A DNA stretch of 64,000 bases from an uncultured Solibacteraceae bacterium. GTDB lineage: Bacteria > Acidobacteriota > Terriglobia > Bryobacterales > Bryobacteraceae. Positions 3,126-50,508 of the stretch are shown one piece after another. The DNA lies in contig CAYGVJ010000007.1 of assembly GCA_964353255.1 (NCBI GenBank), forward strand, positions 317 through 64,316, read 5' to 3'. A model generated the notes under the pieces. It had not been told where the DNA came from. It saw only the letters and a list, made by a program, of their open reading frames with translations, and made no database searches. Numbering within the stretch: the first letter of the stretch is position 1; each line of letters starts with the position of its first letter. A program made the position numbers and the translations under genes.

Positions 3126-3384
3126 CGAATCGCGGGCAGCTCGCTCAGGAAGCGACTGGGGAGCCCGCCACATAACAGGGCAGGTTTCGTCGGCCTTCCG
3201 AGAGGCCAACGCGCGGCAGTACGTGCCGGCCGCCAACCAGGCCTGGGAGGCCCGCTTCCCCGGCATCTTCCATATCAAGGACGGCACGATGCGCACGGGG
3301 GAGATTACCGGCCCCGGCCTCGGCGCTGTATGACGTGGCCCGAAACCTTGAACGGAAACTTGGGTTAAGTGAGTTGAGGAGATT

Positions 3385-4038
3385 GTGAGTATGACGCTTC
3401 GCGCAGTAATCCCGTTCGTCGTCTTCGGCGTCGCCCTGGGCCAGGCCCCGCTGGGGCCGCCGAATAGACCAAGCGTTCCCGGGGGCCCTGGGATGCCGAT
3501 GCTGGTGCCGGACATTGGCGCACTGAAGGCTTACTTGAACCTGACCGATGCGCAGGTTCAGCAGATGCGGCAGGCCGGTGAGCAGGCGCGCAAACAGGCC
3601 GCCGAAAAGGTGAGAACCATTCAGCCGCAGGTCCGGGACAAGCGATTGGCCCTGCGAGACTTGCTCGCCAAAGGCTCCAACGACCCTGCCGCCGTGGGCA
3701 AGCTGGTCCTCGAGATTCAAGCGTTGCAGAAGCAGGTGCGGGAGGGGCGAGAGGCGGTGCGAAACAGCCAGCTTAACGTCTTGACCGCGGAGCAGAAAGC
3801 CAAGTTCAAAGCCATCGAAGACGCTGCGGCGCTGCCGGCGGCGACGCGCGCTGCCATCAGGCTCGGGCTGGTGCCGCGCCCACAAGGCGAACCGGGACTC
3901 GGGATGATGAGGCGGGGCAGAGGCCTGCGCAGACAGGGTGGCACAATGGTGGAACCGGGCCCGGGTATGATGGGACCCGGCGCGGGGCCCCGCCGACGGG
4001 GTCAGGGACTCGGGCCCATGGACGGCGTCGCTCCGTGA
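3385..4038 (+). CDS. Periplasmic Spy/CpxP-family (LTXXQ-motif) protein with a Gly/Pro/Met-rich tail
   Basis: Signal-peptide-like N-terminus, two LTXXQ motifs (LTDAQ, LTAEQ), coiled-coil-like core, GAGGAG Shine-Dalgarno upstream. ATG 3391 is an alternative start. Confidence 0.6.
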   Translation: MSMTLRAVIPFVVFGVALGQAPLGPPNRPSVPGGPGMPMLVPDIGALKAYLNLTDAQVQQMRQAGEQARKQAAEKVRTIQPQVRDKRLALRDLLAKGSNDPAAVGKLVLEIQALQKQVREGREAVRNSQLNVLTAEQKAKFKAIEDAAALPAATRAAIRLGLVPRPQGEPGLGMMRRGRGLRRQGGTMVEPGPGMMGPGAGPRRRGQGLGPMDGVAP

Positions 4039-4867: not shown

Positions 4868-5092
4868 ATGGACAAGCGAGAACTGGCTGAACGTCTGGCC
4901 CGCAAGGCGCGGCTGCCCAAGCCGGTCGCCGCCGATCAGCTTGACCGGGTGGTCCACGGCATCCTGCGGAGCTTGCGCAAGGGGCAACGGGTTACGCTTC
5001 CGGGCTTGGGCACTTTCGTCCCCGGGAAGAAGCCTACGTTTCGATTCGAGCCGGCCAAGTCCGGCAAGAGTGCCCGCAGCGGGCGAAAATGA
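4868..5092 (+). CDS. Small HU/IHF-fold-like DNA-binding protein (short-arm, HU-CCDC81-like)
   Basis: The pattern ELAERLA...VAADQLDRVVHGILRSLRKGQRVTLPGLGTF matches the helix-helix-strand core of HU but lacks the long beta-arm. Basic tail. Its stop overlaps the next start (ATGA at 5089). Confidence 0.6.
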   Translation: MDKRELAERLARKARLPKPVAADQLDRVVHGILRSLRKGQRVTLPGLGTFVPGKKPTFRFEPAKSGKSARSGRK

Positions 5093-5661
5093 GCGGCGCG
5101 GCAGCCACTTCCAGTGAGCAGGTAGCGGGCATTGTCAAGCGCTGCCTGGAGCGCGGCCGGAGCGTCGAGATCGACGGGCTGGGAGTGTTCCGTCCGGCTG
5201 CCGGGGGCCGGTTCAAGTTCGTCGCCGAGGCTCGCTCGAGCGTGTTCCTGGCTTACGTGCAAGAGGACGCCTCCGCCGCTGAGCGGCTGTACCGGGATTT
5301 CCAAGCCCGGGGCTTTGACCCGTGGCTGGACCGCCAGAAGCTGCTACCCGGCCAGAACTGGCCGCGAGCCATCGAGCAGGCCATCGAGTTCTGTGACTAC
5401 TTCGTGGCGTGCTTCTCGAAGTGCGCCGCCGGCAAGCGCGGCTGGTTCCAGTCCGAGTTGCGCTACGCGCTGGATTGCGCCCGGCGCGTGCCGCTGGGGG
5501 AGACTTACCTGATCCCGGTGCGGTTGGAAGAGTGCCGCGTGCCGGCGCGGATCAGCCAGCAGTGGCAGTACGTGGACCTGTTTCCGGATTGGGACCGGGG
5601 GTTCAGGCGGATCCTGGCGGCGATTCGGCGCCGGGTGAGGCGCTCACCCCGAGCGAGCTAG
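5089..5661 (+). CDS. Fusion protein: N-terminal HU-like segment plus C-terminal TIR domain
   Basis: N-terminus VAGIVKRCLERGRSVEIDGLGVFRP..GRFKFV repeats the HU-like core. Residues ~52-150 match bacterial TIR_2: VFLAYVQEDAS, GFDPWLDRQKLLPGQNW, DYFVACFS, WFQSELRYAL (conserved Glu). Confidence 0.75.
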   Translation: MSGAAATSSEQVAGIVKRCLERGRSVEIDGLGVFRPAAGGRFKFVAEARSSVFLAYVQEDASAAERLYRDFQARGFDPWLDRQKLLPGQNWPRAIEQAIEFCDYFVACFSKCAAGKRGWFQSELRYALDCARRVPLGETYLIPVRLEECRVPARISQQWQYVDLFPDWDRGFRRILAAIRRRVRRSPRAS

Positions 5662-6039
5662 CTTGCGCTTGATCTCCGCGGCGCGCGGGTGGTCTGGCGC
5701 CAGCTCCAGGAACTTGCGGTAGGCTTCCCGCGCGGCCTTCGGGTCCTTCAGTTTGTTCTGGGTCTCCCCCAGCCGCAAGTAGGCCTCGGCGTAGCCGGGG
5801 TTCCATTTGGTGGCTTCGCGGAAGCGACCTGCCGCGGCCTTGTACTTGCCCTTGCGGAAATAGAAGTTGCCCACCTTGAGCTCCTGCTCCGCCTGAAGGG
5901 GATTGAACGAGTACTCCTTGACGGTGAGAGCCTCGTCCTCTTCGGGAGGCTCCTGGACGGGAGGCGCCTTCTGCCGCTGGGCGCAGAGCGCGCCACCGAG
6001 CAGCATCAGGAGCAGGAGGCCACCACCGGCGCGTGCCAC
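5644..6039 (-). CDS. Exported TPR-repeat protein
   Basis: Signal peptide followed by TPR-like repeats (GNFYFRKGKYKAAAGRFREA, PGYAEAYLRLGE, AREAYRKFLELAP). Confidence 0.7.
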   Translation of the reverse strand: MARAGGGLLLLMLLGGALCAQRQKAPPVQEPPEEDEALTVKEYSFNPLQAEQELKVGNFYFRKGKYKAAAGRFREATKWNPGYAEAYLRLGETQNKLKDPKAAREAYRKFLELAPDHPRAAEIKRKLARSG

Positions 6040-6061
6040 AATTCTAGTATAAGGTTCGTCG

Positions 6062-7873
6062 ATGGATCTCCGCGAGAAGGCCGCTCAGTTGCCCGCCCAG
6101 CCCGGCGTCTACCTCTACAAGGACGCCGGCGGAGCGGTCCTCTACGTCGGCAAGGCCAAGGACCTGCGCAGCCGCGTGCGGAGCTACTTCTCCGAAGGAG
6201 GCCGGGCCGACGCGAAGACCGGCACGCTGATCGCCGAAGCCCGCGACGTGGAGTACATCCTGGTGGACAACGAGCGGGAGGCGCTGGCTCTGGAGAACAA
6301 CCTGATCAAGCACTGGCAGCCGCGCTTCAACGTTTTGCTGCGGGATGACAAGACCTACCCTTACATCAAGCTGACCAACGAGCGCTACCCGCGCGTCTAT
6401 GTGACGCGGCGGCTCATCAAGGATGGCTCGACTTACTACGGCCCGTATTTCCCCGGGAACCTGGCGCACCGGCTGGTGCACTTGATTCACCGGTATTTCG
6501 GGTTGCCCTCCTGCAAGGTGGATCTGACGCGGCGCCACGCGCAGCCCTGCCTCCAGCACCACATTCACCGCTGCCACGGCCCCTGCGTGGAGGGGCTGAC
6601 CACGGAGGAAGCCTACGCCCGGGCGGCCCGCCTAGTCCGGCTGTTTCTGGAGGGACGCCACGGGGACCTGCTCGCGGAGCTGCGCGCGGAGATGCAACGC
6701 GCCTCCGACGAGACGCGCTTCGAGCAGGCGGCAGTGCTGCGGGACGTGATCTCGACCATCGAGGAGACCGAGGATAAGCAGAGGATGGCCGCGGCCGCCG
6801 GCGAGGACATAGACATCTTCGGCTGCTACGCCGAACCGCCGCTGGTAGCGGCCAACGTCTTTCACCTGCGCAACGGGCGCATTGTGGACCGCCGCGAGTT
6901 CTTCTGGGAGGACCGGACGGAGTTCGAATCGGCGGAGTTTGTCTCGGGTTTTTTGAAGCAGTTCTATCTCGACCAGCAGTACGTCCCGGCGCGGATTCAC
7001 GTACCGGTGGAGTTCGAGGACCGGGAGGCTTTGGAGGAGGCGCTGTCGGAGCGGCGCGGGCGCAAGGTCGAGATCCACACGCCGCAGCGGGGACCGAAGA
7101 AGGCGCTGCTCGATCTGGCTGAGACCAACGCCCGGCACAGCTTCGAGCAGCGTTTCCGGGTGCTGAAACCCTCGGCGAAGGCGATTCAAGAGGCGCTTCA
7201 GGACATGCTGGGCTTGGCAGAGCCGCCCCGGCGCATCGAGTGCTTCGACATTTCCCATATTCACGGGACGGACACCGTAGCCAGCCTGGTGGTTTGGGAA
7301 AACGGGCGGATGAAGAAGTCGGATTACCGCAAGTTTGTCATCCGCACCGTGGAAGGCAGCGACGACTTCGCGGCCATGCGGGAGGTGATCACGCGGCGGT
7401 ATCGGCGGCTGCAAGAAGAGAAGCGGCCCCTGCCGTCGCTGGTGCTGGTGGACGGCGGCGTGGGTCAACTGCACGCGGCCGCCGAAGCGCTGGAGGGGCT
7501 GGGAATCACGGATCAGGCGCTAGCCGCCATCGCCAAGCGCGAGGAGTGGATTTACGTCTACGGGCAGGAAGACGAGCCGGTGGTGCTGGACCGCTTCTCG
7601 CCGGTGCTCCATCTGGTCCAGAGCGTGCGCGATGAGGCGCACCGGTTCGCCGTGACCTTCCACCGCACGCGGCGCGCGGCGGCGCGGCTGCGCTCGGAGC
7701 TGGAGCAAATCCCTGGGGTGGGAGAGAAGACCGTGCAGAAGCTGCTCAAGCACTTCGGCAGCCTCGAGGGCGTGCGCCAGGCCGCGGAGGAAGAGCTGGC
7801 GGCGGTGGTGGGGAAGGCAGCGGCAAGGCGGGTGCGGGGGTGGCGCGCCGCTCCCGAGGGCGACGTACAATAA
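6062..7873 (+). CDS. uvrC: Excinuclease ABC subunit C
   Basis: GIY-YIG N-terminus (PGVYLYKDAGGAVLYVGKAKDLRSRVRSYF), UVR domain, RNase H-like endonuclease region and C-terminal (HhH)2 (IPGVGEKTVQKLLKHFGSLEGV). The last 10 codons are unrelated to the displaced tail copies. Confidence 0.95.
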   Translation: MDLREKAAQLPAQPGVYLYKDAGGAVLYVGKAKDLRSRVRSYFSEGGRADAKTGTLIAEARDVEYILVDNEREALALENNLIKHWQPRFNVLLRDDKTYPYIKLTNERYPRVYVTRRLIKDGSTYYGPYFPGNLAHRLVHLIHRYFGLPSCKVDLTRRHAQPCLQHHIHRCHGPCVEGLTTEEAYARAARLVRLFLEGRHGDLLAELRAEMQRASDETRFEQAAVLRDVISTIEETEDKQRMAAAAGEDIDIFGCYAEPPLVAANVFHLRNGRIVDRREFFWEDRTEFESAEFVSGFLKQFYLDQQYVPARIHVPVEFEDREALEEALSERRGRKVEIHTPQRGPKKALLDLAETNARHSFEQRFRVLKPSAKAIQEALQDMLGLAEPPRRIECFDISHIHGTDTVASLVVWENGRMKKSDYRKFVIRTVEGSDDFAAMREVITRRYRRLQEEKRPLPSLVLVDGGVGQLHAAAEALEGLGITDQALAAIAKREEWIYVYGQEDEPVVLDRFSPVLHLVQSVRDEAHRFAVTFHRTRRAAARLRSELEQIPGVGEKTVQKLLKHFGSLEGVRQAAEEELAAVVGKAAARRVRGWRAAPEGDVQ

Positions 7874-7877
7874 GGCC

Positions 7878-8117
7878 ATGGGGTTGCCACCGCCGTTCGA
7901 CCGCATCACCATCGACCCGGAGCTCATGAACGGGCAGCCGTGCATCCGCGGCATGCGGCTCACGGTGCGACGCGTGCTTCAGGCGATGGCGCTCTATCCT
8001 GACCGTGCCGAGCTTTTCCGGGAATATCCGGAACTGGAAGAAGAGGACCTGCGGCAGGCCCTGGAGTTTTCGGCCGCCAATCTGGATGACCGCATCGACC
8101 TGCTGAACGTGGCGTGA
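7878..8117 (+). CDS. DUF433-family antitoxin-like protein
   Basis: ITIDPELMNGQPCIRGMRLTVRRVLQ...YPELEEEDLRQALEF matches the DUF433 pattern. Starts 4 nt after the uvrC stop. Confidence 0.8.
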   Translation: MGLPPPFDRITIDPELMNGQPCIRGMRLTVRRVLQAMALYPDRAELFREYPELEEEDLRQALEFSAANLDDRIDLLNVA

Positions 8118-8120
8118 GCC

Positions 8121-8501
8121 GTGATGCACAGGCTCCTACTGGATCAGGGACTGGCGCGCGCGACGGCAGCGATTCTCAGGGAGCGCGGGTGGGATGCCGT
8201 TCATGTCGGTGAGCTCGGCTTGGCCCACGCCTCAGACCGCTCCATCCTGGAGCTGGCGCGGCGTGACGGCCGCATGCTCTGCACGCTGGACGCTGACTTC
8301 CACCAACTGCTGGCTCTGAGTGGGGCAACGTCTCCCTCCGTCATTCGCATCCGGATCGAGGGCTTGCGTGGTCCGGCGCTGGCGCGGCTGCTGGAGCGAG
8401 TCTTGGAAGAGGTGGGGCCTTCGCTGATGGCCGGAATGGCGGTGACGATAACCACCCGTTCGGTCCGGGTGAGGCGGCTTCCGTTGACCAGCGCGAGATA
8501 G
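8121..8501 (+). CDS. DUF5615-family (PIN-like/Mut7-C-like) toxin-like protein
   Basis: LLLDQGL...HVGELGL..ASDRSILELARRDGRMLCTLDADFHQLL pattern. Sits 3 nt after the DUF433 gene, a typical pairing. Confidence 0.8.
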   Translation: MMHRLLLDQGLARATAAILRERGWDAVHVGELGLAHASDRSILELARRDGRMLCTLDADFHQLLALSGATSPSVIRIRIEGLRGPALARLLERVLEEVGPSLMAGMAVTITTRSVRVRRLPLTSAR

Positions 8502-8502
8502 C

Positions 8503-8661
8503 GTGACTGATTCCCCTGGGGTGGGAGAGAAGACCGTGCAGAAACTGCTCAAGCACTTCGGCAGCCTCGAGGGCGTGCGCCAGGCTTCGGAGGAAGATCT
8601 GGCGGCGGTGGTGGGGAAGGCAGCGGCAAGGCGGGTGCGGGGGTTCCACGCGGCGGGATAG
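8503..8661 (+). pseudogene. uvrC: Displaced uvrC 3' tail, copy B (HhH segment plus its own stop, ...RVRGFHAAG*)
   Basis: 8514-8644 aligns to uvrC 7711-7841 with 4 mismatches in 131 nt (hand alignment). The frame is preserved to TAG 8659-8661. Confidence 0.8.
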
Positions 8662-8696
8662 CCTTCTGGGCGTCCCGGTGATACGATCAGGCTGCT

Positions 8697-9956
8697 ATGG
8701 CTGCGAGTCAAGTGAAGCTGTGGGTTGGGGCGCTCTGCCTGGCGACGCTGGCACAGGCTGCCGAACTGCCCGACGAGCGCGTGCGCCGCTACATGGATTA
8801 CAAGTTCGGGATGTTCATCCACTGGGGGCCGTATTCGCTGGCGAGCGTCGAGGCCTCCTGGCCCATCATGCGGCCGGAGCGCAAGGAACGCGGGACGATC
8901 AGCGAAGCCGAGTACCGCTTGCTGCCCACACGGTTCAACCCGGTGAAATTCGAGCCCAAGGCCTGGATCCGGCTAGCCAAGGAGGCGGGCCAGCGCTACA
9001 TGGTCTTCACCAGCAAGCATCATGACGGGTTCGTGATGTTCGATTCGGCCTACACCGACTACAAGATCACTAACACGCCTTACAAGAAGGACCTCGTGGC
9101 GGAACTGGCGGCGGCCTGCCGTGCGGAAGGGATGCCGCTGGGCTTCTACTACTCGCCGCCGGACATGAACCACCCGGGGTACCGCGACACCTCGAAGCCC
9201 TCCAGCGCCAACTGGCGCGGAGAGCCCACGCGCGCGGAATGGGTCACCTACCTGGACTACATGGAGGTGCAGGTGCGGGAGCTGCTCACGCGCTACGGCG
9301 AGCTGGCGGTGGTGTGGTTCGACGGCCTGGGCGGCGGCGCCTACGATGGGCTCCGCTTCCAGAAGCTGGTGCGCGAGCTCCAGCCCAAGGCGGTGATGAA
9401 CAACCGCATCGGGATCGCGGGCGACTTCGAGACCCCCGAGCAGTTCGTCCCCAAGACACTACCCACGCGGCCCTGGGAAACCTGCATGACCATCAACCGC
9501 ACCTGGGCCTACAACCGGAACGACACCAACTACAAGTCCACCACGCAGTTGATCCGGATGCTGATAGAGGTGGCCGGCAAGGGCGGCAATTTCTTGCTGA
9601 ACGTGGGGCCGACGCCGGAGGGCGCCATCCAACCGGAGTTCGAGGAGCGGCTGCGCGGGATCGGCGCCTGGCTGAAGGTGAACGGCGAAGCCATCTACGG
9701 AACGACCGCCGGCCCGCTACAGGATCTGCCCTGGGGCCGCACTACGGCCAAGGGCGGGACCATCTACCTGCACGTGTTTGACTGGCCGAAGGGGACTCTG
9801 GAGGTGGCTGGCCTGCGCGCCCGGGTGCGGCAGGTCTCCCTGCTGGCGGGAGGACAACGCCTGCGGTTCACCCAGAGAGGCGACCGGTTGAGCGTTCAGA
9901 CGCCGGAGCAAGCGCCCGACCCGCACGCTACGGTGCTGGCGTTGCGCACCCGCTGA
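8697..9956 (+). CDS. Exported alpha-L-fucosidase, GH29 family
   Basis: Signal peptide; GH29 motifs YKFGMFIHWGPYS, TSKHHDGF, VVWFDG, GGNFLLNVGP. Confidence 0.85.
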   Translation: MAASQVKLWVGALCLATLAQAAELPDERVRRYMDYKFGMFIHWGPYSLASVEASWPIMRPERKERGTISEAEYRLLPTRFNPVKFEPKAWIRLAKEAGQRYMVFTSKHHDGFVMFDSAYTDYKITNTPYKKDLVAELAAACRAEGMPLGFYYSPPDMNHPGYRDTSKPSSANWRGEPTRAEWVTYLDYMEVQVRELLTRYGELAVVWFDGLGGGAYDGLRFQKLVRELQPKAVMNNRIGIAGDFETPEQFVPKTLPTRPWETCMTINRTWAYNRNDTNYKSTTQLIRMLIEVAGKGGNFLLNVGPTPEGAIQPEFEERLRGIGAWLKVNGEAIYGTTAGPLQDLPWGRTTAKGGTIYLHVFDWPKGTLEVAGLRARVRQVSLLAGGQRLRFTQRGDRLSVQTPEQAPDPHATVLALRTR

Positions 9957-9989
9957 TCAGCGAGCGCTCCGGGCCGCGGGAGCGGAAGC

Positions 9990-10009
9990 CGCGGCGGCCT
10001 CAGCCGCCG
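9990..10009 (+). terminator. GC hairpin downstream of the fucosidase gene (possible terminator, no U-tract)
   Basis: GCGGCGGC-CTCA-GCCGCCGC, 8-bp stem with a 4-nt loop, 34 nt after the stop codon. Confidence 0.25.
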
Positions 10010-10172
10010 CCGTCCCGAGCGGCGGTGGTGAGTGGGTGGATGATGCGCAACTTCCATCGTATCAAACAGTTCGCCTGTTGTGAGACGCGCCGACAGGTTG
10101 CTGTTGTTCAGGATTGTCTTCTGTTCACGTATCGTGTACAATGGGGTTGTGTGAACAGGAGGGCGTCCTGAC

Positions 10173-11207
10173 ATGAAAAGGCACAACCTGCCCGTGCTCC
10201 ACGCGGCCATAGCGGGCTTGCGCCGGACGACGGGCCTTACGGCCCGGATCCTCGCCCAGGAGCCGCTCACTCCCGCCGGTCGTGCGGATGCGGTGCTCGA
10301 AATCGAGGCAGGTGGCCACGCGTATCGCTTTGTCGCCGAGGTGAAGGTTGTCGATCGGTTCGAGACTCCCGCCCAGGTGAAGAGGCGGTGGGCCGGCCCA
10401 GACGCCGTCCCGATTCTGGTGGCGCCATGCCTCACGCGCGATGCGGCTCAACGTTGCCGAGAACTGCGCTTAGCCTTCATAGACACGGCGGGCAATACTT
10501 ACCTCGAAGGCCCCGGACTTCTGATCTGGGTCGTCGGTCAACCCCATCCGATCGAACTGAAGCGACAACGGTTTCGGGCGCTCAACCCGGCAGGACTCCA
10601 GGTCACCTTCGCGCTACTGTGCCGTCTGGACCTTATTCAAAGCACTTATCGCGAGATCGCCCGAGCGGCAAACGTGGCGCTGGGAACGGTCGGACCTGCG
10701 ATCAAGGATCTTGAGGCCCGCGGTTTCATTCGGTGGGCGCGCAGCGGAGCACGGCGAGTTGTCGATCCTCGCCGGCTCCTAGAGGAATGGGTGACCTATT
10801 ACCATACGACCCTGCGCCCGAAACTGAATCCACGACGTTTCGACGCAGATACGGACTCCTTAGAGAAGGCGGACCTCAAGGCGTACGACGCGTACTGGGG
10901 AGGAGAGGTTGCGGCGGACAAGCTCACGCACATGCTGAAACCGGCCACGTTCACGATCTATGCCCGCGAACTGATTACCCGCCTAGTTTTGGGCCAACGC
11001 TTGCGTGCACGCGCAGGCGGCCGGATCGAAGTTCTCGACGCGTTCTGGAACTTCGCCGCGGACCCGGGCCATCCCGACGTCGTGCCTCCGGTGCTTGCCT
11101 ACGCGGACCTTCTCGCGACGCAGGACGGCCGTAACATCGAGGCGGCGAAGCTCATCTATGACCAACTTGTCGAACCCGCGTTTCATCGTGCCGGTCAAGC
11201 CGGTTGA
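10173..11207 (+). CDS. AbiEi-family type IV TA antitoxin / transcriptional regulator with an extra N-terminal domain
   Basis: Central wHTH (STYREIARAANVALGTVGPAIKDLEARGFI) and an AbiEi-type C-terminal region (LLEEWVTYY...LRPKL...YWGGEVAADKLT). AGGAGGG Shine-Dalgarno upstream. Followed by an NTase gene. Confidence 0.65.
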   Translation: MKRHNLPVLHAAIAGLRRTTGLTARILAQEPLTPAGRADAVLEIEAGGHAYRFVAEVKVVDRFETPAQVKRRWAGPDAVPILVAPCLTRDAAQRCRELRLAFIDTAGNTYLEGPGLLIWVVGQPHPIELKRQRFRALNPAGLQVTFALLCRLDLIQSTYREIARAANVALGTVGPAIKDLEARGFIRWARSGARRVVDPRRLLEEWVTYYHTTLRPKLNPRRFDADTDSLEKADLKAYDAYWGGEVAADKLTHMLKPATFTIYARELITRLVLGQRLRARAGGRIEVLDAFWNFAADPGHPDVVPPVLAYADLLATQDGRNIEAAKLIYDQLVEPAFHRAGQAG

Positions 11208-12033
11208 TCCACTCACGGGTCGCGTACTTCGTCGGGTAGATCAAGCCGCGGCGGCGTGTGGCTCGCGATGCTTCGTGGCGGGCGCTATGGCGCGAGACTT
11301 GGTCTTGGTGAACGCCTTCGGGCTGCCGCCCGGCCGGGCGACCAGGGACATTGATTTCGGCATTGCGGTCGAGAGCTGGGAACAGTTTCAGACGCTCAGG
11401 GCCAACCTGATTGAGACCGGCCAGTTCGACGCCGCGCCGCGGGATGCCCGCCGACTGTACTGGAAAGACCCGGACGCCGAAGTCGCCACTCCCATTGACC
11501 TCATTCCCTTTGGCGGAGTCACGTCTGAGGACAAGACCATCGCCTGGCCTCCAAACCGGGATTTCGTGATGAACGTGGCCGGATTCGAGGAGGCGTTGGA
11601 GTCCGCAATCGAGCTGCGAATCGAAGACGACCTCGTCGTCTCAGTAGCGTCAATTCCGGGACTCACCGTTCTGAAACTGATCGCTTGGCAGGATCGCCGG
11701 AGTAGGAACAACCAGGACGCGGCAGATCTCATTCGCCTCCTGGAGTACTACGCGGAGGCCGGGAATCTGGATCGCCTCTACGAACAGGAGATGCTTCTGC
11801 TCGAGACTGCTGGTTTCGACCTGGAGCTGGCGGGAGCACAGCTATTGGGGCGCGATGCGGCTCGCATCTGCCAAGCGGCGACACGGCAGCAGGTTTCCGC
11901 TCTTCTCAGTTCGGAACCGCTTGTCGACCAACTGATCGTCCAAATGGACCGAACAGGATTCAGCGAAGACCTGCAAACGGAACGGATCTCCGGCCTCTTG
12001 AGACGGTTCTGTCAGGGTTTCCTCGGCGCTTGA
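11158..12033 (+). CDS. AbiEii/AbiGii-like nucleotidyltransferase toxin
   Basis: NTase signature FVAGAMARDLVL...GRATRDIDFGIAV and a helical C-terminal domain. Overlaps the AbiEi-like gene. The start is uncertain (ATG 11158 or GTG 11188); the longer 11005 frame overlaps AbiEi implausibly. Confidence 0.7.
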   Translation: MTNLSNPRFIVPVKPVDPLTGRVLRRVDQAAAACGSRCFVAGAMARDLVLVNAFGLPPGRATRDIDFGIAVESWEQFQTLRANLIETGQFDAAPRDARRLYWKDPDAEVATPIDLIPFGGVTSEDKTIAWPPNRDFVMNVAGFEEALESAIELRIEDDLVVSVASIPGLTVLKLIAWQDRRSRNNQDAADLIRLLEYYAEAGNLDRLYEQEMLLLETAGFDLELAGAQLLGRDAARICQAATRQQVSALLSSEPLVDQLIVQMDRTGFSEDLQTERISGLLRRFCQGFLGA

Positions 12034-12043
12034 TTGTGCTGCG

Positions 12044-12160
12044 CCGGTGCTGCACCTGGTCCAGAGCGTGCGCGATGAGGCGCGCCGGCTCGCGGCGACC
12101 TTCGACCGCACGCGGCGGGAGGCGGCGCGGCGGGTCAAGGGGTTCTACGAGCCTGCCTGA
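12044..12160 (+). pseudogene. uvrC: Displaced uvrC tail, copy C (older, HhH segment deleted; ...RTRREAARRVKGFYEPA*)
   Basis: 12044-12133 aligns to uvrC 7601-7690 with about 10 mismatches in 90 nt (PVLHLVQSVRDEA...). It then joins directly to a terminal peptide resembling copy B. Confidence 0.75.
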
Positions 12161-12540
12161 GGCTCCGGCGCGCTCTCGCCCGCCTCGCGGATGAGCGCGG
12201 CGCAGCGGGCGGCTTGGTAGCGCAGTTCGAGATCCTCAGCGAGGCTGAGGAGTTCGTCTCGGCTGGCCCGGCCGGGCCGCAGCGCATTGTAGATCTCCAG
12301 GATGCGCTCCGCAGGTACGTTCACCAGCTCGGCGGCGCGGCGTAGGTTCTCGGCAAGCTGCGGCCTGCCGGAGGATGCGGCGATTTGCGCCTGAAGCTCC
12401 AGCGCCTCGGAAGTCACGCGCAGGTCCTCCATGGTAAGGGCGCCCTCGAGGACGGCTTCGAGCGTGATTTCCCGGAAGGGCAGCCCGGTGGGGGTCTTCA
12501 GCCGCTCGGGGACCTTTTCGGCCAGCGGGTACTCAGGCAC
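12145..12540 (-). CDS. pduE: B12-dependent diol/glycerol dehydratase small (gamma) subunit
   Basis: YPLAEK..PERLKTPTG..FREITLEAVLEG....DLRVT..ALELQAQIA...GR.QLAENLRRAAEL..VP..RILEIYNALRPGR is a classic PduE/DhaB-gamma pattern. Its GTG start overlaps the upstream stop (GTGCCTGA). The longer 184-aa frame is rejected. Confidence 0.85.
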   Translation of the reverse strand: MPEYPLAEKVPERLKTPTGLPFREITLEAVLEGALTMEDLRVTSEALELQAQIAASSGRPQLAENLRRAAELVNVPAERILEIYNALRPGRASRDELLSLAEDLELRYQAARCAALIREAGESAPEPQAGS

Positions 12541-14764
12541 GGCGCACCCCCAGTTCTTGGGGCGGTTTCCGCTGGTCCACCTGCTCGGTCTCGCGCAAGT
12601 GCAGAATGGTGGTCTGGACGATGTAGCGCAGCCGGGCCATGTTATCGATCCGGACCGGGACGGGGAGCACCGGCTCGCCCTTGGCGTAGTTGGCCGCATT
12701 GCGTCCGATGACGCGGTAGGACTCCAAGGTCAGGTTGGGCGCTTGCGGGAACAGTTCCAGGTTGCTGAGCGGTTCCAGGTCGCGGCGGTGGATGACCGTG
12801 GTGCCCTTGGACTGGATGCCGATGCTGACGCCCGAACCGCTCAGACGCGCTCCGGCATGGCCGATGAAGCCGCAATCCGAGGTGTGGTAGATCTTGACCA
12901 CCCGCGGCTTCAGGCCCTCCTGCTCGATTCCCTCGAGGAGCGCCTGAAGCACTTCGGCGTGCGGCAGGCCGAGCAGCGTAGCATCGAGCGCGGCGCCGAA
13001 GGCCGGGCCCACGGCGATGACGATCTCGCGCGGGTCATCGCCGGGGCGGGCTTCACCCACCTCTTCCAGCCACGCCGGTTTAGCTTCCGCCCGCGCCCGG
13101 CCAATGGCCCGCGGGTCCTGGGCCTGCGGGATGCCGGCGATCTCGCCGGCCCGCTCGGGGCTGAGGCGATAGCCGCTGCCGGGTCCCTGGTAGTCGTTGG
13201 GATCGTTGACTGCGCTCAGGACTCTGGCCCCCGGCAAGACCACGGCGGAGGTTTGCAGGTAGTCGCCGGAGACCCGCAGCTTCTGTATGGCCAAGATCTT
13301 CCCGGCGATGTCGCGGAAGCCGCGCCGCGCCAGGGCCTTGATCACGTCCACGCCGTTCAGTCCCCGGCTGAGGAAATCCTCGGCGGCTTCCAGATCCGCC
13401 ACCACGTTGCGCTCCGGCATATCGTCGCTCGAGTAGGCGATGACGGCAGCCTCGACCTCGGCATCGCTGATCGGCGGCAGGTCTAGTTCCCCGAAGACGG
13501 CTTGGACGGCCTGAGCCGCGCGCCGCCGCACCTCCAGCACCTCAGGCTCGAGCACCGGCCGCAGCCCGCCGTCGGCCTGCATGTCGCGCTGGAGAACGTT
13601 GTAGTCGTCCAGGTCATCGGCGTCGAAATTGCCCCCGCCGAAGAGGTTGTCCTCGCGCGGCATCGAGCTGTAGCCGGAGAAGATGAAATCGGTGCCCGGC
13701 AAGAACTGGAGCATCAACTTGGAAGCCTTGCGGATGTCGGAATGCGAGGCCATGGCGTCGTTGCCCGAGGCCACTTCCAGGTCGAGGGCGGCGGCAATCA
13801 GGTTCTCTGCCAGCACGCCGCGCACGCCGCCGGGCAGCGACTCGGGCAGCGCGATGCAGCTTATCGAGCCGTTCTGAACCCCCTGGGAGCCGGCGCCCTT
13901 GATGGCCATCAAACAGCGGGTTTCCAGGTAGATCATCGACTTGCCTTCGGCATGCCCCATCAGGGCCTCCGAACCGCTGCCGGAGGTGAAGCGGACCTTG
14001 ATGCCGCGGGAGGCGTAGGCCGAAGCGAGGAACGCTTTCGACCAGGGAGTGTCGTCGCCGTCGCGGAAAGCCTGCTCGGTACCGTAGACCGAGAGCGTTT
14101 CGGCGTAGGTGGTCAGCCCCAGCAGCGCCAGTCGCAGGCCCAGCGACTCCTCGACCGCGCACTGCGTCAGGGCCGTGCCGCGCCCGGTCTGCGAGCCGAC
14201 CAGCACCGCGAGCGCGTTCAGCGGGGCATAGCGCGCCACTCCCACCGTGGTCTCCAGCTCCGCGAAACCGCGCTCGACCGCCTCGGCGGCGTCGGCGGCC
14301 AGCAGCGCCGGGTTCTCGCGGCGGTTGGTGACGTGCGCCTGGTTAGAGGGGGTCTTGCGGGCCCGCATCTTCTGGAGGGCCATCATCATCTCGACCACGT
14401 TCAGGTGGTCAACCACCTGCATGATCTTGGCCGGCGTGAGCCCGGCGAAGAGGCGCACGACCTCGGCGCGCGGCGTGTGGATGTCCACCAGCATCCGGGC
14501 CAGAGCCTTCGAGTCCGTAGCCATGGCAGCCTCGGCGACGGGGACGTCGATGGCGTGGCGCGCGATGAAGCGGTCCAGCATGTCGTAGCGCGCTTCCGGC
14601 GTGCCGTCCAGCTCGATGATGCGTCCGTCGCGCACCTTGATCTGTGGCTTCGGATCGAAGGGGCTATTGAAGACCACCAGGCCGGTCTCGGGCCACTCCT
14701 GGATGAAGGTGTCCCGGTTAACGTCGCGCCGGGCGCGCGCCTGGAAGCGTTTGGAGACCGCCAT
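12533..14764 (-). CDS. pduC: B12-dependent diol/glycerol dehydratase, large (alpha) and medium (beta) subunits fused in one 743-aa polypeptide
   Basis: Colinear with PduC over ~550 aa (NVVEMMMALQKMRARKTPSNQAHVTN, GDDTPWSKAFLASAYASRG, QFLPGTDFIFSGYS). It continues into a PduD-like region (EIVIAVGPAFG, RLSGSGVSIGIQSKGTTVIH, LSNLELFPQAP). Confidence 0.9.
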   Translation of the reverse strand: MAVSKRFQARARRDVNRDTFIQEWPETGLVVFNSPFDPKPQIKVRDGRIIELDGTPEARYDMLDRFIARHAIDVPVAEAAMATDSKALARMLVDIHTPRAEVVRLFAGLTPAKIMQVVDHLNVVEMMMALQKMRARKTPSNQAHVTNRRENPALLAADAAEAVERGFAELETTVGVARYAPLNALAVLVGSQTGRGTALTQCAVEESLGLRLALLGLTTYAETLSVYGTEQAFRDGDDTPWSKAFLASAYASRGIKVRFTSGSGSEALMGHAEGKSMIYLETRCLMAIKGAGSQGVQNGSISCIALPESLPGGVRGVLAENLIAAALDLEVASGNDAMASHSDIRKASKLMLQFLPGTDFIFSGYSSMPREDNLFGGGNFDADDLDDYNVLQRDMQADGGLRPVLEPEVLEVRRRAAQAVQAVFGELDLPPISDAEVEAAVIAYSSDDMPERNVVADLEAAEDFLSRGLNGVDVIKALARRGFRDIAGKILAIQKLRVSGDYLQTSAVVLPGARVLSAVNDPNDYQGPGSGYRLSPERAGEIAGIPQAQDPRAIGRARAEAKPAWLEEVGEARPGDDPREIVIAVGPAFGAALDATLLGLPHAEVLQALLEGIEQEGLKPRVVKIYHTSDCGFIGHAGARLSGSGVSIGIQSKGTTVIHRRDLEPLSNLELFPQAPNLTLESYRVIGRNAANYAKGEPVLPVPVRIDNMARLRYIVQTTILHLRETEQVDQRKPPQELGVRRA

Positions 14765-17979: not shown

Positions 17980-19986
17980 ATGAGCGAAACCAAGTTCCGT
18001 CCCTACGTTCCCGAGAAAACCGACCTCGCCGAATTCACCGTCCGGGCGGTAGTGCTGGGCCTGGTGATGACGGTGGTGTTGGGGGCCGCTAACGCCTACC
18101 TGGGTCTGCGAGCCGGGATGACCATTGCCGCCACATATCCGGCGGCGGTCATCAGCATGGCGGTGCTGCGGCTGTGGCGCGGCTCGATCCTGGAGGAGAA
18201 CATCGCCCGCACCGTCGGCTCGATCGGCGAGTCGGTGGCCGCCGGCGCCATTTTCACCATCCCGGCGTTCGTCATCTCCGGGGCCTGGAAGACGTTCGAC
18301 CCCGGAGTGGCGTACTGGAAATCCACCGTGCTGATGCTGGTGGGCGGCATTCTGGGCATCCTGTTCGTGACCCTGCTGCGGCGGGTAATGGTGGAAGATC
18401 CCGACCTGGGCTTCCCGGAATCGGTGGCGGCGGGCGAGATCCACAAAGCCGGGCAGCGCGGCAGCGGGGCGGCCAAGATCCTCTTCAGCAACATGGCATT
18501 TGGGTCGGTGATCTATGCCCTGGGCGTCGTCAAGCTGTACGCCGCCGGCAAGACTTTTTTGTTGGCGGTCGGCGAGACGGGCAAGAGCCTGGTGCGGCTG
18601 GTGAGCAAGGGCTACCGGCAGGAGGTGGGGGTCGGCGGCGTCACGGCGGCAGCGATGCCGGCGATCAGCCCAGCGTATCTGGGCGTGGGTTACATCATCG
18701 GGCCGCGGCTGGCGGCGCTGAACTTCTCCGGCGGCGTGCTGGCGTGGGGACTGTTGATTCCGCTGCTGGCCTACTTCCTGGGGCCGCAACTGGCGCCCTC
18801 GAACCCCAACTGGGAGACGGTCAGTGACGCGGTCTGGAAGTCCATCGTGCGCCCCATCGCGGTAGGGGGCATGCTGGTGGGCGCCGGCTTCACGCTGTTC
18901 CGGATGCGCAAGAACCTGGCCCGCGGCCTGGCGCGGGCCGTGTCGGACGTTAGGAAAGCCGGGGCCAAGGCGCAGGTCACTTCCCGGCTGGACCGCGACC
19001 TGAGCGCCAAGACGGTCTTCGCCGGGCTGGGCGTCACTTTCGTCTGCATGGCGCTGCTGTACGCCTACTTCGCCAACATGCTCTCCGGGGGCGTGGTGGC
19101 GGCGCTGGTGATGATCGTGCTGGGCTTTTTCTTTGCCGCGGTCTCGGGCAACTTGGTGGGCCTGATCGGTTCCTCGAACAACCCGATTTCGGGCCTGACG
19201 CTATCGACGCTGATCGTGGCGGCGCTGTTGATGGTCTCGATCGGCGTTTCAGGTGTGGGCGGCGTGGCGGCGGTCCTGGGCGTGGCCGCGGTGGTATGCG
19301 TGTCCTCGGCGGTGGCGGGCGAGATGCTCCAGGACCTGAAGGTGGGACATATTCTGGGCGGGACCCCGCGGAGCATGCAGATCGGCGACGTGCTGGGAGT
19401 GGTGTTTGCCAGTCTGCTGATGTATTTCCCCCTGCTGGTGTTGCACCAGGGGAACATCAACGCCGGAGGCATCGGCTTCGGCGACAAGGAATTATCGGCG
19501 CCGCAGGCCGGCCTGATGGCCTCCCTCGCCCAGGGTATCGTGGGGGGCGGCATGCCCTGGCCGCTCATCGCGGTGGGCGTGCTGATGGGCTTCACGCTCA
19601 TCATGGTGCAGGTGCGCAGCCCCATGCTGTTCGCCGTGGGCATGTACCTGCCGCTGGAGACCACGTCGGCGATCTTCGTCGGCGGCGTGTTCCGCTGGAT
19701 CACCGACAGCCTGAGCAAGCGGCGGGGTTTCAACGAGGCCCAGAAGACGCGGGTGGAGAACGCCGGCATTCTCACCGCTTCGGGCCTGATCGCCGGCGAG
19801 GCCCTGACCGGGCTGGTAGTGGCGACCTTCAAGTTCTTCGAGTGGCCGCTGCCGGTAATCTTCAAGGAGCCGTCCATCCTGGCGGGGCTGGTGGTGCTGG
19901 CGCTGATCGCCGGGATCATGATCCGGGTGCCGCTAGGCAGCGCCGGACGGCCGGAGGAGGCCGCGCCGCCGGCGGCGATGATGTAA
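17980..19986 (+). CDS. OPT-family oligopeptide transporter
   Basis: 668 aa, about 16 hydrophobic segments. N-terminal pattern EFT.RA...G......GAANAYLGL..GMT..A..PAAV.S is typical of bacterial OPT proteins. Confidence 0.85.
   Translation: MSETKFRPYVPEKTDLAEFTVRAVVLGLVMTVVLGAANAYLGLRAGMTIAATYPAAVISMAVLRLWRGSILEENIARTVGSIGESVAAGAIFTIPAFVISGAWKTFDPGVAYWKSTVLMLVGGILGILFVTLLRRVMVEDPDLGFPESVAAGEIHKAGQRGSGAAKILFSNMAFGSVIYALGVVKLYAAGKTFLLAVGETGKSLVRLVSKGYRQEVGVGGVTAAAMPAISPAYLGVGYIIGPRLAALNFSGGVLAWGLLIPLLAYFLGPQLAPSNPNWETVSDAVWKSIVRPIAVGGMLVGAGFTLFRMRKNLARGLARAVSDVRKAGAKAQVTSRLDRDLSAKTVFAGLGVTFVCMALLYAYFANMLSGGVVAALVMIVLGFFFAAVSGNLVGLIGSSNNPISGLTLSTLIVAALLMVSIGVSGVGGVAAVLGVAAVVCVSSAVAGEMLQDLKVGHILGGTPRSMQIGDVLGVVFASLLMYFPLLVLHQGNINAGGIGFGDKELSAPQAGLMASLAQGIVGGGMPWPLIAVGVLMGFTLIMVQVRSPMLFAVGMYLPLETTSAIFVGGVFRWITDSLSKRRGFNEAQKTRVENAGILTASGLIAGEALTGLVVATFKFFEWPLPVIFKEPSILAGLVVLALIAGIMIRVPLGSAGRPEEAAPPAAMM
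19960..19984 (+). repeat. 25-nt direct repeat, copy 1 (last codons of the OPT gene)
   Basis: GCCGCGCCGCCGGCGGCGATGATGT is identical to 20613-20637. Here it is followed by AA, giving TAA. Confidence 0.9.
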
Positions 19987-20067
19987 ACGTCCGTTGTGGT
20001 CCGCAGAATCATCTGTGGGATCCTAAGCAAGTTCGTTCGGGCGGTCAGGTTGTGGTGAGGGCTTCTG

Positions 20068-20349
20068 GTGGGGTATACATTTGAGTGGGACCCGAAGAAG
20101 GCGGAGTCCAACGCCCGAAAGCACGGCGTGACCTTCGACGAGGCATCAACGGTCTTCGGCGATCCACTGGCGCTCCTCATGCCCGACCCGGATCACTCTC
20201 TGGACGAGGAGCGGTATCTATTGCTCGGAACATCGAGTCAGCATAGGCTCCTCGTGGTGGCTTTTGCGGAGCGAGCGCCGCGCACCCGCCTGATCTCGGC
20301 GAGAGGAGCCACTCAGCGCGAGCGGAGGCGCTATGAAGAAGAAGGCTAG
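20068..20349 (+). CDS. brnT: BrnT (DUF497) ribonuclease toxin
   Basis: FEWDPKKAESNARKHGVTFDEASTVFGDP....D.DHS..EERY...G......LLVV.......RLISAR.AT..ERR.Y is the canonical BrnT pattern. Confidence 0.85.
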   Translation: MGYTFEWDPKKAESNARKHGVTFDEASTVFGDPLALLMPDPDHSLDEERYLLLGTSSQHRLLVVAFAERAPRTRLISARGATQRERRRYEEEG

Positions 20350-49290: not shown

Positions 49291-50508
49291 ATGGTCAAGG
49301 TGCTGCTGGTCGAGGACAACTCTGGGGATGCGGAACTGGTGCAGGAGATGCTCGCCGAGGCCGAAGGCGCTCCCTTCACCATCCTGTGGTCCGCCTCGCT
49401 TTGGGCCGGTCTGGACCGCCTGGCCGAGGAACAGGTGGACGTAGTCCTGTTGGATCTGTTTCTGCCGGATTGCCACGGGCTGGAAACCTTCACCGCCTTG
49501 CGCGCCCACGCGCCGGGCGTGCCCGTGGTGGTGCTCACCGGCCTGGACAGCGAGGCAGTGGCGATGGCCGCGGTGCGCGAGGGCGCCCAGGACTATTTGG
49601 TCAAGGGCAAGCTGGAGAGTGAGTCTCTGGTGCGGGCGCTGCGCTACGCCTTGGTCCGGCACTCCAAGCAGGCGGAGCCGGCCTCGCCGGAGGAGCGCCG
49701 GCAGGCGGGCATGGTGGGCCTGCTGGGCGCCAAGGGCGGCGTGGGCGTCACTACCCTGGCCTGCCATCTGGCCCTGGAGCTGCGCCGCCAGGCTGACGAG
49801 GGCGTCCTGGTGGTGGATCTGGACCTGAACGCCGGCTTGCTGGGTTTCCTGCTGAAGGCCAGCGCGTCGTTCTCGATCCTGGACGCGGTCAAGAACATCC
49901 TGCGGCTGGATGTGGAGGGGTGGAAGAGCATGGTATCGTCCGGCACCGGAGGCCTGAAGTTGCTCCCCGCTCCGAGCGCGGCGCCCCTGGAGGAACTGCC
50001 CCCGGCGGGCAGGATCTGCCACGTGCTGCGCTTCGCCCGGCTGCATTACCGCTGGATCGTGGCTGACCTGGGGCGGCTCACGGCTTTCTCCGTCAAGCTT
50101 CTCAAGGAGTTCGACGAGTTGCTCCTGGTTACCACCGATGATGTGACCGCGTTGCGCGAGGCCCTGCGTGCCGGCCGGCAGATCCTGGACAGCGGCTTCC
50201 CGGCGGAGCACCTGCGGCTGGTCCTCGACGGGGCGCCCCGATCGCTGGATATTCCGGTCAACGACGTCGAGCAGGTGGTGGGCCTGCCGGTCTACGCCGT
50301 GCTTCCGGAAGACGGCCGGCAGTTGCGCAAGGCCGGCCTACGCGGCGAGCTGCTGGCCGAGGACAGCGCCTTGCGTCAAAGCATCGCCCGCCTGGCCGCC
50401 CGCCTGGCGGGCGCCGCCGACCAGCCGGGGGAGGCCAAGTCGCGCCGGACGGGCTGGGACCTGAGGAGAATCGTGCGCTGGGGAGCGAATCGCGGCGCGC
50501 CGGCTTGA
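49291..50508 (+). CDS. Response-regulator receiver fused to a CpaE/TadZ-like (ParA/MinD superfamily) ATPase domain
   Basis: REC: VLLVEDNSGD, DVVLLDLFLPD, VVVLTG, DYLVKG. Deviant P-loop region GLLGAKGGVGVTTLA. Confidence 0.75.
   Translation: MVKVLLVEDNSGDAELVQEMLAEAEGAPFTILWSASLWAGLDRLAEEQVDVVLLDLFLPDCHGLETFTALRAHAPGVPVVVLTGLDSEAVAMAAVREGAQDYLVKGKLESESLVRALRYALVRHSKQAEPASPEERRQAGMVGLLGAKGGVGVTTLACHLALELRRQADEGVLVVDLDLNAGLLGFLLKASASFSILDAVKNILRLDVEGWKSMVSSGTGGLKLLPAPSAAPLEELPPAGRICHVLRFARLHYRWIVADLGRLTAFSVKLLKEFDELLLVTTDDVTALREALRAGRQILDSGFPAEHLRLVLDGAPRSLDIPVNDVEQVVGLPVYAVLPEDGRQLRKAGLRGELLAEDSALRQSIARLAARLAGAADQPGEAKSRRTGWDLRRIVRWGANRGAPA

Follow-up and report, generated by a model that had tools for sequence, protein, structure and literature searches.

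Insertion with long target duplication, reportedly the subject of Nobusato et al. 2000 (Gene 259:99), is the closest described parallel to the arrangement analysed here, in which the end of the DNA-repair gene uvrC is found again twice downstream of the live gene, each time beyond a small accessory gene unit, in a stretch of 64,000 nucleotides (nt; the whole stretch is called the window below) from an uncultured Solibacteraceae bacterium (contig CAYGVJ010000007.1). Restriction-modification systems in Helicobacter, Haemophilus, Neisseria and other hosts have been found in such insertions, between repeats of more than 30 bp and up to about 420 bp whose length varies, with no other mobile element present and by an unknown mechanism, DNA breakage by the cargo being suspected as the driver (PMC2853133). 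The loci analysed here (those of relatives carry L numbers) are similar in that a small gene unit lies between long direct repeats, exceeding 30 bp and variable in length and position, of a sequence that is single-copy at the empty site of a relative (with L006 compared with L001 as the textbook case); no transposase or integrase gene is found in or beside the insert, which is shorter than 20 kb, the cargo is of the addiction type, and genes are fused or truncated at the junctions. The AbiE block of the window also has an intact counterpart site in a relative (L170), but its duplication is only about 15 nt long. Unlike the described insertions, those found here carry toxin-antitoxin (TA) or abortive-infection (Abi) pairs as well as plain genes (ankyrin, lectin-like, uracil-DNA glycosylase (UDG)) and occur in Acidobacteriota, one housekeeping gene end has been struck repeatedly, and the copies in at least one event (L163) look like different alleles. 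The pattern as such has already been described; new here are the type II TA, AbiE and plain-gene cargo, the phylum and the hotspot at a housekeeping gene.

A second parallel is offered by the effector-immunity arrays of the type VI secretion system (T6SS) of Vibrio cholerae, where sequential displacement has been attributed to homology-facilitated illegitimate recombination (Kirchberger et al. 2017, PMC5361080), with C-terminal displacement in Rhs (Jackson et al. 2009) as a parallel case, and where the arrays then spread among relatives by ordinary homologous recombination (PMC5361080). The uvrC loci share with these a conserved 5′ anchor, an incoming new 3′ end with linked genes (most clearly in L163), old ends orphaned downstream and the lack of an integrase. 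In the Rhs and T6SS cases, on the other hand, the variable 3′ end is itself the functional payload (toxin tip plus immunity gene) and the orphans are reusable, whereas the displaced uvrC ends are decaying and without evident use, the payload being unrelated genes past the stop codon.

Tandem accretion at the 3′ end of a gene is also known from fda of Streptococcus thermophilus, with ICESt1 and the integrase-less cis-mobilizable elements (CIMEs). As in accretion at such attachment (att) sites, direct repeats of a gene 3′ end bracket successive inserts and the live gene remains intact; a recombinase and a fixed core are needed there, however, and neither was found here, in the window or within 10 kb downstream of uvrC in 160 loci. 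Integron arrays are likewise made of promoterless cassettes fitting tightly around their open reading frames (ORFs), often TA pairs, stacked past a fixed point and expressed by read-through. Unlike in integrons, what recurs between cassettes is part of the target gene itself, a XerD seed retrieved no IntI-like tyrosine recombinase, and no attC-like hairpin repeats were seen, though no dedicated attC model was run.

Taken together, we consider it fairly probable that in this Bryobacterales lineage the 3′ flank of uvrC serves as a recombination hotspot, where accessory DNA is added without a site-specific recombinase, and on balance the displaced ends are best explained by recombination anchored in uvrC homology with an illegitimate join on the other side. 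The locus would thus illustrate how accessory and defence genes can be taken up beside a DNA-repair gene, which stays unbroken, without a dedicated recombinase and in a gene-dense genome of near-overlapping convergent genes, and it would extend insertion with long target duplication from restriction-modification to TA and abortive-infection modules in Acidobacteriota.

Displaced uvrC ends in the window

The live uvrC (6062-7873) was used as BLASTN query against the entire window, and a whole-window self-BLAST served as repeat search. Segment 7711-7841 recurs without gaps at 8514-8644 (copy B; 127 of 131 nt identical, E 1e-58; the segment within live uvrC is called copy A), and segment 7599-7688 recurs at 12042-12131 (copy C; 81 of 90, E 2e-29), in agreement with the 4 mismatches and the approximately 10 in 90 nt counted in the first-pass annotation of this DNA; besides these two no uvrC match in the window was significant (all others E at least 0.03). 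The frame of copy B reads on through ..AAARRVRGFHAAG-stop, i.e. ..RRVRGFHAAG-stop, to its own stop codon ending at 8661, as had been noted. Copy B begins 12 nt past the DUF5615 stop codon and copy C 8 nt past that of AbiEii, with no uvrC homology upstream of either, so that the earlier view of both as former uvrC ends, not full paralogues, holds.

Genomes of the same species were not found in the genome and metagenome scans, from which 160 loci with Bryobacterales UvrC of 70-83% amino acid (aa) identity to that of the window were obtained; the exact UvrC protein is not on record. Closer relatives (L161-L172) were reached only by searching with the cargo proteins. Nucleotide identity to the window is 85% for L161, 82% for L162, 77% for L163/L164 and 98.7% for L171, which comes from another sequencing run, and in L170 the GH29 gene is 92% and pduE 90% identical.

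The tail of copy B and the sequence downstream of it correspond to the uvrC tail (..RVRGFCESG-stop) that precedes GH29 in L170. At the sites where A and B differ, L170 agrees with A at three of four, so that B carries derived changes on this reading of the alignment; the idea that B is nearer than A to the family consensus was dropped, because the closest relatives L161 and L170 side with A at three of the four sites. Orthologues of the GH29 gene lie downstream of uvrC in L162, L163/L167, L166, L169 and L170, and gene order in these relatives indicates that GH29 is a long-standing uvrC neighbour in the clade and not recent cargo. The simplest state is that of L169, in which uvrC converges on KduI and GH29 follows, with neither TA pair nor displaced ends. 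The contig of L170 starts exactly where copy B starts and that of L171 (position 1768) ends 8 nt into the repeat; such breaks at the edge of the A/B repeat are expected if the uvrC helix-hairpin-helix (HhH) segment is present in several copies in those genomes too and halted the assembler.

An intact 52-aa ORF beginning with GTG (window 8503-8661, forward strand) contains copy B. It scores as a stand-alone HhH domain (HHH_5, 5e-9), and gene callers could mistake this displaced gene end for a small DNA-binding protein. Annotators should be aware that short ORFs made up only of an HhH segment or a gene tail and lying next to TA pairs are scars and not genes.

The TA pair behind the live uvrC

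The uvrC stop codon occupies 7871-7873 and the DUF433 ATG stands at 7878; the DUF433 and DUF5615 genes are 3 nt apart and would, by both Pfam domains, form a putative type II TA pair. The public gene call of DUF5615 starts at the ATG at 8124 (125 aa; P0001, 100% identical), and its homologues next to uvrC in relatives are 68-86% identical. The pair has no promoter-like site of its own, the sole sigma-70-like site in 7400-12400 belonging to the AbiE region, and DUF433 follows uvrC at the same 4-nt distance in L161-L164, in keeping with the earlier suggestion that the pair can be read through from uvrC. The last 10 codons of the live gene had been taken for unrelated sequence, which they are not: the tail is conserved beside the TA pair in L161, L162 and L163 (window ..AAPEGDVQ-stop, L161 ..TPQGDLQ-stop, L162 ..ASEGAVQ-stop, L163 ..PLEGDTVK-stop), and the UvrC of the window, L162 and L163 are each other's closest sequences. 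Because the tail is conserved beside the pair in four related lineages, the uvrC-TA junction appears old and inherited and the insertion appears to predate the group.

The 3′ side of the pair differs among these lineages. It consists of 12 nt followed by uvrC from PGVGEK onwards (copy B) in the window, of a 35-nt uvrC piece in L163 and of an approximately 20-nt repeat of the tail end followed by a membrane-protein gene in L162, and no uvrC-derived sequence was found there in L161. In L166 the uvrC tail and the first approximately 20 nt of DUF433 are kept and the TA pair is lost. A VapB-like 65-aa ORF and a truncated 58-60-aa PIN ORF stand at the DUF433/DUF5615 position in L166 (485-848) and L163 (~7466-7906), and in both the approximately 20 nt of DUF433 that remain ahead of the VapB-like ORF have the ATG changed to ACG. 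Different TA pairs thus appear to have been swapped behind the same leader in these two loci.

The AbiE block and copy C

In L170 the GH29 and pduE genes abut directly (TGA followed by TCA) and copy C is absent. Relative to L170, window 9978-12162 is an insertion composed, in this order, of an RRM remnant, the AbiE unit with its own promoter, 8 nt and copy C, and it is flanked by an approximately 15-nt duplication of the pduE end. At the right-hand junction pduE runs 6 extra codons (EPQAGS-stop) into the antisense of copy C, its C-terminus being ..REAGESAPEPQAGS-stop in the window and ..REAAESAP-stop in L170. On the left, the window and L170 share TCAG.G.GCGCTC right after the GH29 stop codon, which L166, L167 and L169 do not have, and the pduE remnant at 9957-9971 matches the L170 21-mer at 16 of 21 positions, a match equalled by 24 of 200,000 random windows. 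In L166 an RRM_1 gene comes after GH29, and the RRM remnant aligns to its end (..GGSGNRGGGFGRRRREPRW-stop). The AbiEi and AbiEii genes overlap by 50 nt (start fixed via P0241) and with the inverted-repeat operator are assigned, as a putative unit, to the AbiE class (type IV TA, abortive infection). The same unit occurs alone elsewhere in another Bryobacteraceae genome (L172), with no uvrC piece beside it, the homology spanning from window position 10105 to the AbiEii stop codon.

In copy C, ..RREAAR is joined straight to RVKGFYEPA-stop (stop codon 12158-12160), 141 nt being missing in frame between two imperfect 12-nt AAAR-coding repeats (7676-7687 and 7817-7828 in the live uvrC). The same AbiEii-TTGTGCTG-C junction is present in L171 with copy C undeleted and running through ..LRSELEQIPG; since L171 is so nearly identical to the window, the deletion is real and recent, and the earlier description of copy C as a tail with its HhH segment deleted is borne out. 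Copy C differs from the live uvrC at 4 synonymous and 5 non-synonymous codons, at conserved residues, and the simplest reading of these changes is that it is the more diverged copy since it derives from another allele and is decaying.

Because the GH29/pduE junction is intact in L170, copy C was not displaced in place; in the simplest reading of the junctions it would be a passenger of the AbiE block that arrived after the TA/B structure existed. The first-pass annotation had proposed serial integration in which each event supplies a replacement gene end and pushes the older one downstream: that incoming DNA can supply a gene end is upheld, most clearly in L163 (see below), but the order of events, with copy C as the oldest end in place, is not. 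The empty states it asked for in relatives were found in part, as the intact GH29/pduE junction of L170, with no exact empty site for the A/B repeat. A native context for copy C, with a 16-nt pduE overlap, was ruled out by L170, where GH29 abuts pduE and pduE ends 6 codons earlier. Tandem duplication of the uvrC end with its neighbours followed by loss was also ruled out, the genes after A, B and C being unrelated and relatives showing intact sites.

Displaced uvrC ends in related loci

The own uvrC end of each of the 160 loci was compared by BLAST with the flank of that locus. Genes upstream of uvrC are conserved in these loci (a TPR lipoprotein gene, often a TIR gene) and the downstream region is not. 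Independent displaced uvrC ends were found in four of the 160 (L006, L012, L079, L154), and in L163 among the closer relatives. In L006 a 489-nt fragment, 99.8% identical (1 of 489 nt differs), follows a single 156-aa ORF, and in L001 the target is single-copy and the 477-nt insert is absent, i.e. the site is empty. L012 has an approximately 81-nt fragment with a tachylectin-like gene as cargo, and L154 an approximately 280-nt fragment (79% identical) with a PIN-type pair. In L079 a 37-nt fragment of the extreme tail accompanies an ankyrin gene; in ten relatives without this insert the metallophosphoesterase-like gene that lies behind it in L079 runs towards uvrC instead, overlapping the uvrC stop by 23-47 nt. 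Apparent displaced tails in L025 (26 nt) and L101 (24 nt) were discarded as GC-rich chance matches upon alignment.

L163 has three displaced pieces, of 35, 513 and 71 nt. Its live end and the 513-nt piece (D1) differ at 36 of 168 codons, 29 synonymously and 7 non-synonymously, and the differences form a mosaic in which identical and diverged blocks alternate. D1 ends in a different native-type tail (..REGGVP-stop) followed by two small ORFs, and the same tail and ORFs make up the live uvrC end of L166. By this codon pattern, the live and displaced ends of L163 look like two functional alleles from different lineages brought together, and an incoming uvrC 3′ end with its TA pair would have displaced an L166-like end.

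Over all events, the 5′ boundary of the displaced fragment differs each time, and the duplications measure 15, 35, 37, ~81, 131, ~280, 489 and 513 nt. With no common core and changing boundaries, the comparison with tRNA-type att sites made in the first-pass annotation does not stand. In none of the uvrC events does the left repeat run past the uvrC stop codon; it ends there or just ahead of it, and the right-hand boundary varies. The cargo fits tightly around its ORFs, usually with 1-60 nt to spare per side and with 5-12 nt from the last stop codon to the displaced fragment in the window (twice) and in L006.

The signature outside uvrC

When the 160 loci (2.18 Mb in total) were compared with themselves by BLAST, further genes with this signature emerged in L042, L053, L154, L138, L065 and L069, often around TA pairs. 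In L042 a DUF433/DUF5615 pair is flanked by 151-nt copies of another gene's 3′ end; in L053 a DUF433 gene and its small partner ORF, which is unclassified, lie beside the displaced 5′ head of a MiaB-like gene; in L154 (event L154b) a MazE-type antitoxin gene and an adjacent small ORF lie between 61-nt copies of the start of gcvT; in L138 a UDG gene lies between 113-nt repeats. Displaced gene ends beside TA-type genes, for which the first-pass annotation had proposed a search of the genome, are thus present at other genes of related loci (L042, L053, L154), and the phenomenon is not confined to uvrC. An exclusive link of DUF433/DUF5615 to uvrC was ruled out by such pairs elsewhere (L042, L053, L038, L083).

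Leaving aside the window and L163, there are 4 events per 127 uvrC tails against about 8 per about 2,177 genes. This makes uvrC a hotspot by a factor of roughly 8 (rough Poisson P = 0.0014), yet the signature is not uvrC-specific.

In L053 the displaced head of the MiaB-like radical-SAM gene (18872-19295 compared with 20028-20241) consists of two joined segments with an internal deletion, as in copy C, which suggests that displaced fragments commonly shrink by internal deletion.

Search for a recombinase

Tyrosine and serine recombinases were searched for by jackhmmer with XerD and Hin sequences, which served only as seeds. None was found among the window ORFs or the 4,507 ORFs within 10 kb downstream of uvrC in the 160 loci, apart from a fragment in L146, and no terminal or shared inverted repeats were found at the cassette ends and junctions, in accordance with the earlier impression that neither an integrase nor such repeats are visible. 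No search was aimed at DDE transposases, yet every cargo ORF was accounted for by Pfam, which covered the cargo of the window and that of relatives. Rfam gave no match at E ≤ 0.1 in window 5000-14000.

The L146 fragment, the only recombinase-like ORF in this search space, comprises the C-terminal 121 aa of a tyrosine recombinase (3176-3671) and abuts a tRNA-Ser(CGA) gene; a divergent DUF433/DUF5615 pair (2312-2892) begins 167 nt after uvrC in the same locus.

Proposed mechanism and alternatives

A left repeat that never passes the uvrC stop codon, combined with a varying right-hand boundary, fits homologous pairing within uvrC at one junction and illegitimate joining at the opposite one, and does not fit a fixed recombination site. 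DNA of a related genome would pair with the conserved 3′ part of uvrC by ordinary homologous recombination, and its other, non-homologous end would be joined illegitimately, either upstream of where the homology runs out or to the sister chromosome. A variable piece of the target (15 to about 500 nt) would thereby come to lie on both sides of the cargo, the live gene retaining a complete end, sometimes that of the donor, and the older end staying downstream as a dead fragment. The repeats and their junctions, the intact sites of relatives, the changing boundaries, the lack of recombinase genes in the DNA covered and the allele-like divergence of L163 are observed; the enzymology (RecA and an illegitimate join), the route of DNA entry, gene conversion and a stabilising role of the TA pair are what we infer.

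Applied to the window, an old insertion would have set the promoterless DUF433/DUF5615 pair with its short leader into the uvrC tail, so that copy B came to stand ahead of GH29, the ancestral neighbour. Much later, the RRM remnant, AbiEi/AbiEii and the uvrC fragment would have been inserted at the GH29/pduE junction with the approximately 15-nt duplication; the probable origin of this block is the uvrC-GH29-RRM locus of a relative in which AbiE already stood ahead of a displaced uvrC end. Copy C would then have lost its HhH segment by the 141-nt deletion between the two AAAR-coding repeats. In such a history the displaced ends and passenger relics (copy C, the RRM remnant and the pduE remnant) make up a readable record of the earlier places of the cassette.

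Repeats of 131-513 nt lying less than 3 kb apart would be prone to RecA-mediated deletion, and inserts with addiction modules would be the likeliest to persist. TA and AbiE modules thus probably protect the repeats from deletion, and the excess of TA and Abi cargo may be explained by the persistence of only those inserts whose loss is punished. This offers a reason for the cargo bias: only addictive cargo would survive deletion between the flanking repeats.

Several points weigh against anchored recombination with an illegitimate join. As no same-species genomes were found, there is no event for which donor, recipient and product could all be compared. Donor-type sequence in the live copy was seen in L163, and the copies A and B of the window (4 differences) and those of L006 (1) are too alike to show a foreign allele; L006 (99.8%) and A/B (97%) fit duplication in situ equally well. 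The TA junction predates the clade and B has nevertheless diverged from A by only 3%, which needs gene conversion or a second event; the 97% identity may well reflect such conversion or a later re-creation of the repeat. ORF-tight cargo is not predicted by random illegitimate joins. A recombinase may also be encoded elsewhere in the genome, outside the 64-kb window.

Duplication of a long target in situ, by a widely staggered break, template switching or sister-chromatid bridging, would draw both copies from the recipient and involve no foreign uvrC allele. The near identity of the copies in L006 (1 of 489 nt) and in the window (4 of 131) speaks for it, as do the duplicated 5′ gene heads (L053, L154b) and the range of lengths from 15 to 513 nt. 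Merodiploids generated by transformation, which are reportedly documented, would also be in its favour. The literature defines this class of insertion without a mechanism (PMC2853133). The different tails in L163 and in copies B and C (HAAG-stop in B, YEPA-stop in C), together with the mosaic differences, point to different alleles and not to copies of one sequence: the live end of L163 and D1 differ at 36 codons, 29 of them synonymously, and D1 shares its tail with L166. A left repeat that never extends beyond the uvrC stop codon also fits a donor gene end better than a randomly staggered interval, and duplication in situ is consequently considered rather unlikely. Random illegitimate joining does not predict cassette ends so close to the ORFs, a preference for uvrC of roughly 8-fold or the TA bias of the cargo. 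This leaves room for an unrecognised, possibly trans-acting Bryobacterales activity, which would insert minimal cassettes, trimmed nearly to their ORFs and often promoterless, at gene ends and duplicate tens to hundreds of target bases with a preference for the uvrC tail; such an activity seems improbable, and if real it would account mechanistically for insertion with long target duplication, which has long lacked an explanation.

Accretion at an att site in the uvrC 3′ end, driven in trans by a tyrosine or other site-specific recombinase as for integrase-less CIME-like elements and in essence as the first-pass annotation had read it, would account for direct repeats of a gene 3′ end around cargo, which are its classic signature, and for several events at one gene; in L146, moreover, an integrase fragment lies 0.3 kb beyond a DUF433/DUF5615 pair that follows uvrC. 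The boundaries, however, differ from event to event with repeats of 15 to 513 nt, unrelated genes and 5′ ends bear the same signature, inverted repeats, hairpins and Rfam motifs are missing from the cassette ends, and no integrase stands beside uvrC in the 160 loci, the L146 fragment abutting a tRNA-Ser gene; att-site accretion is therefore highly doubtful. A chimeric assembly of strain variants, or decay of B and C from full-length uvrC paralogues, is hardly credible. The source is probably a metagenome-assembled contig and no second sample showed the TA-to-B junction itself, but the uvrC-TA (L161-L164), uvrC tail-GH29 (L170) and AbiEii-C (L171) junctions are reproduced by independent samples, the copies have diverged (3% and 10%), one with a deletion, and the junctions share no k-mers that could mislead an assembler. 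Paralogy is contradicted by homology that stops sharply 8-12 nt past the cargo stop codons, with nothing uvrC-like upstream. How long target duplication comes about could become accessible to experiment in a Bryobacter that can be cultured and has such a hotspot.

Features of the window and neighbouring genes

The features of the uvrC-pduE region are collected in Table 1; the gene calls of the first-pass annotation (DUF433/DUF5615, GH29, AbiEi/AbiEii and pduE) were all confirmed by Pfam.

Table 1. Positions of uvrC, its displaced copies and the intervening genes in the window (GC3, GC content at third codon positions)
Feature	Position	Strand	Remarks
Live uvrC	6062..7873	+	603 aa; Pfam GIY-YIG, UVR, two UvrC RNase H-like domains, HhH
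Segment A′ of live uvrC (..PVLHLVQSVRDEAHRFAVTFHRTRRAAAR)	7599..7688	+	Counterpart of copy C, 81/90 identical
Segment A of live uvrC	7711..7841	+	HhH end PGVGEK..AAARRVRG; left copy of 131-nt direct repeat
Last 10 uvrC codons WRAAPEGDVQ-stop and 4-nt spacer	7842..7877	+	Conserved tail/leader accompanying the TA pair in relatives
DUF433 protein, putative antitoxin	7878..8117	+	PF04255, E 2e-19
DUF5615 PIN-like protein, putative toxin	8121..8501	+	PF18480, E 2e-23
Copy B, displaced uvrC end	8514..8661	+	HhH segment and native-type tail GFHAAG-stop; HhH Pfam on 52-aa ORF
GH29 alpha-L-fucosidase	8697..9956	+	Pfam E 4e-90; GC3 0.89, host-like
Decayed copy of last pduE codons and stop, antisense	9957..9971	.	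Left copy of ~15-nt target duplication
RRM gene 3′-end remnant, glycine/arginine-rich (..GRGSGSRGGLSRRRPERRW-stop)	9963..10044	+	Passenger, left end of AbiE block
AbiE promoter/operator region	10105..10172	+	Inverted repeat TGTTCAC..GTGAACA; sigma-70-like site 10114-10142
AbiEi, putative antitoxin/transcriptional regulator	10173..11207	+	PF09952, E 3e-37; GC3 0.70, below host genes
AbiEii, putative nucleotidyltransferase toxin	11158..12033	+	PF08843, 5e-8; 291 aa; P0241 97% identical, also 291 aa
Copy C, uvrC 3′ fragment	12042..12160	+	HhH segment deleted; tail KGFYEPA-stop; right end of AbiE block
pduE, diol dehydratase small subunit	12145..12540	-	PF02287; stop lost at insertion junction

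Upstream of uvrC, a small HU/IHF-like gene (4868-5092, forward strand) overlaps by 4 nt the start of a TIR-domain gene (5089-5661, forward strand; TIR_2, 5e-27). The HU and TIR pair is also found upstream of uvrC in L163/L167 and L169, TIR homologues occupy this place in about a dozen other Bryobacterales loci, and the two genes thus make up a conserved DNA-binding-protein/TIR pair in a housekeeping neighbourhood. Beyond pduE, the large and medium subunits of the diol/glycerol dehydratase are fused in one 743-aa ORF (12533-14764, reverse strand; Dehydratase_LU and Dehydratase_MU), the stop codon of which is overlapped by the small-subunit gene. Besides the uvrC pieces, the only repeats of the window are a 55-nt tandem duplication (47910-47964 and 47970-48024, 93% identical) and two 65%-identical segments 3.2 kb apart (49438-49760 and 52682-53013), which are probably paralogous genes.

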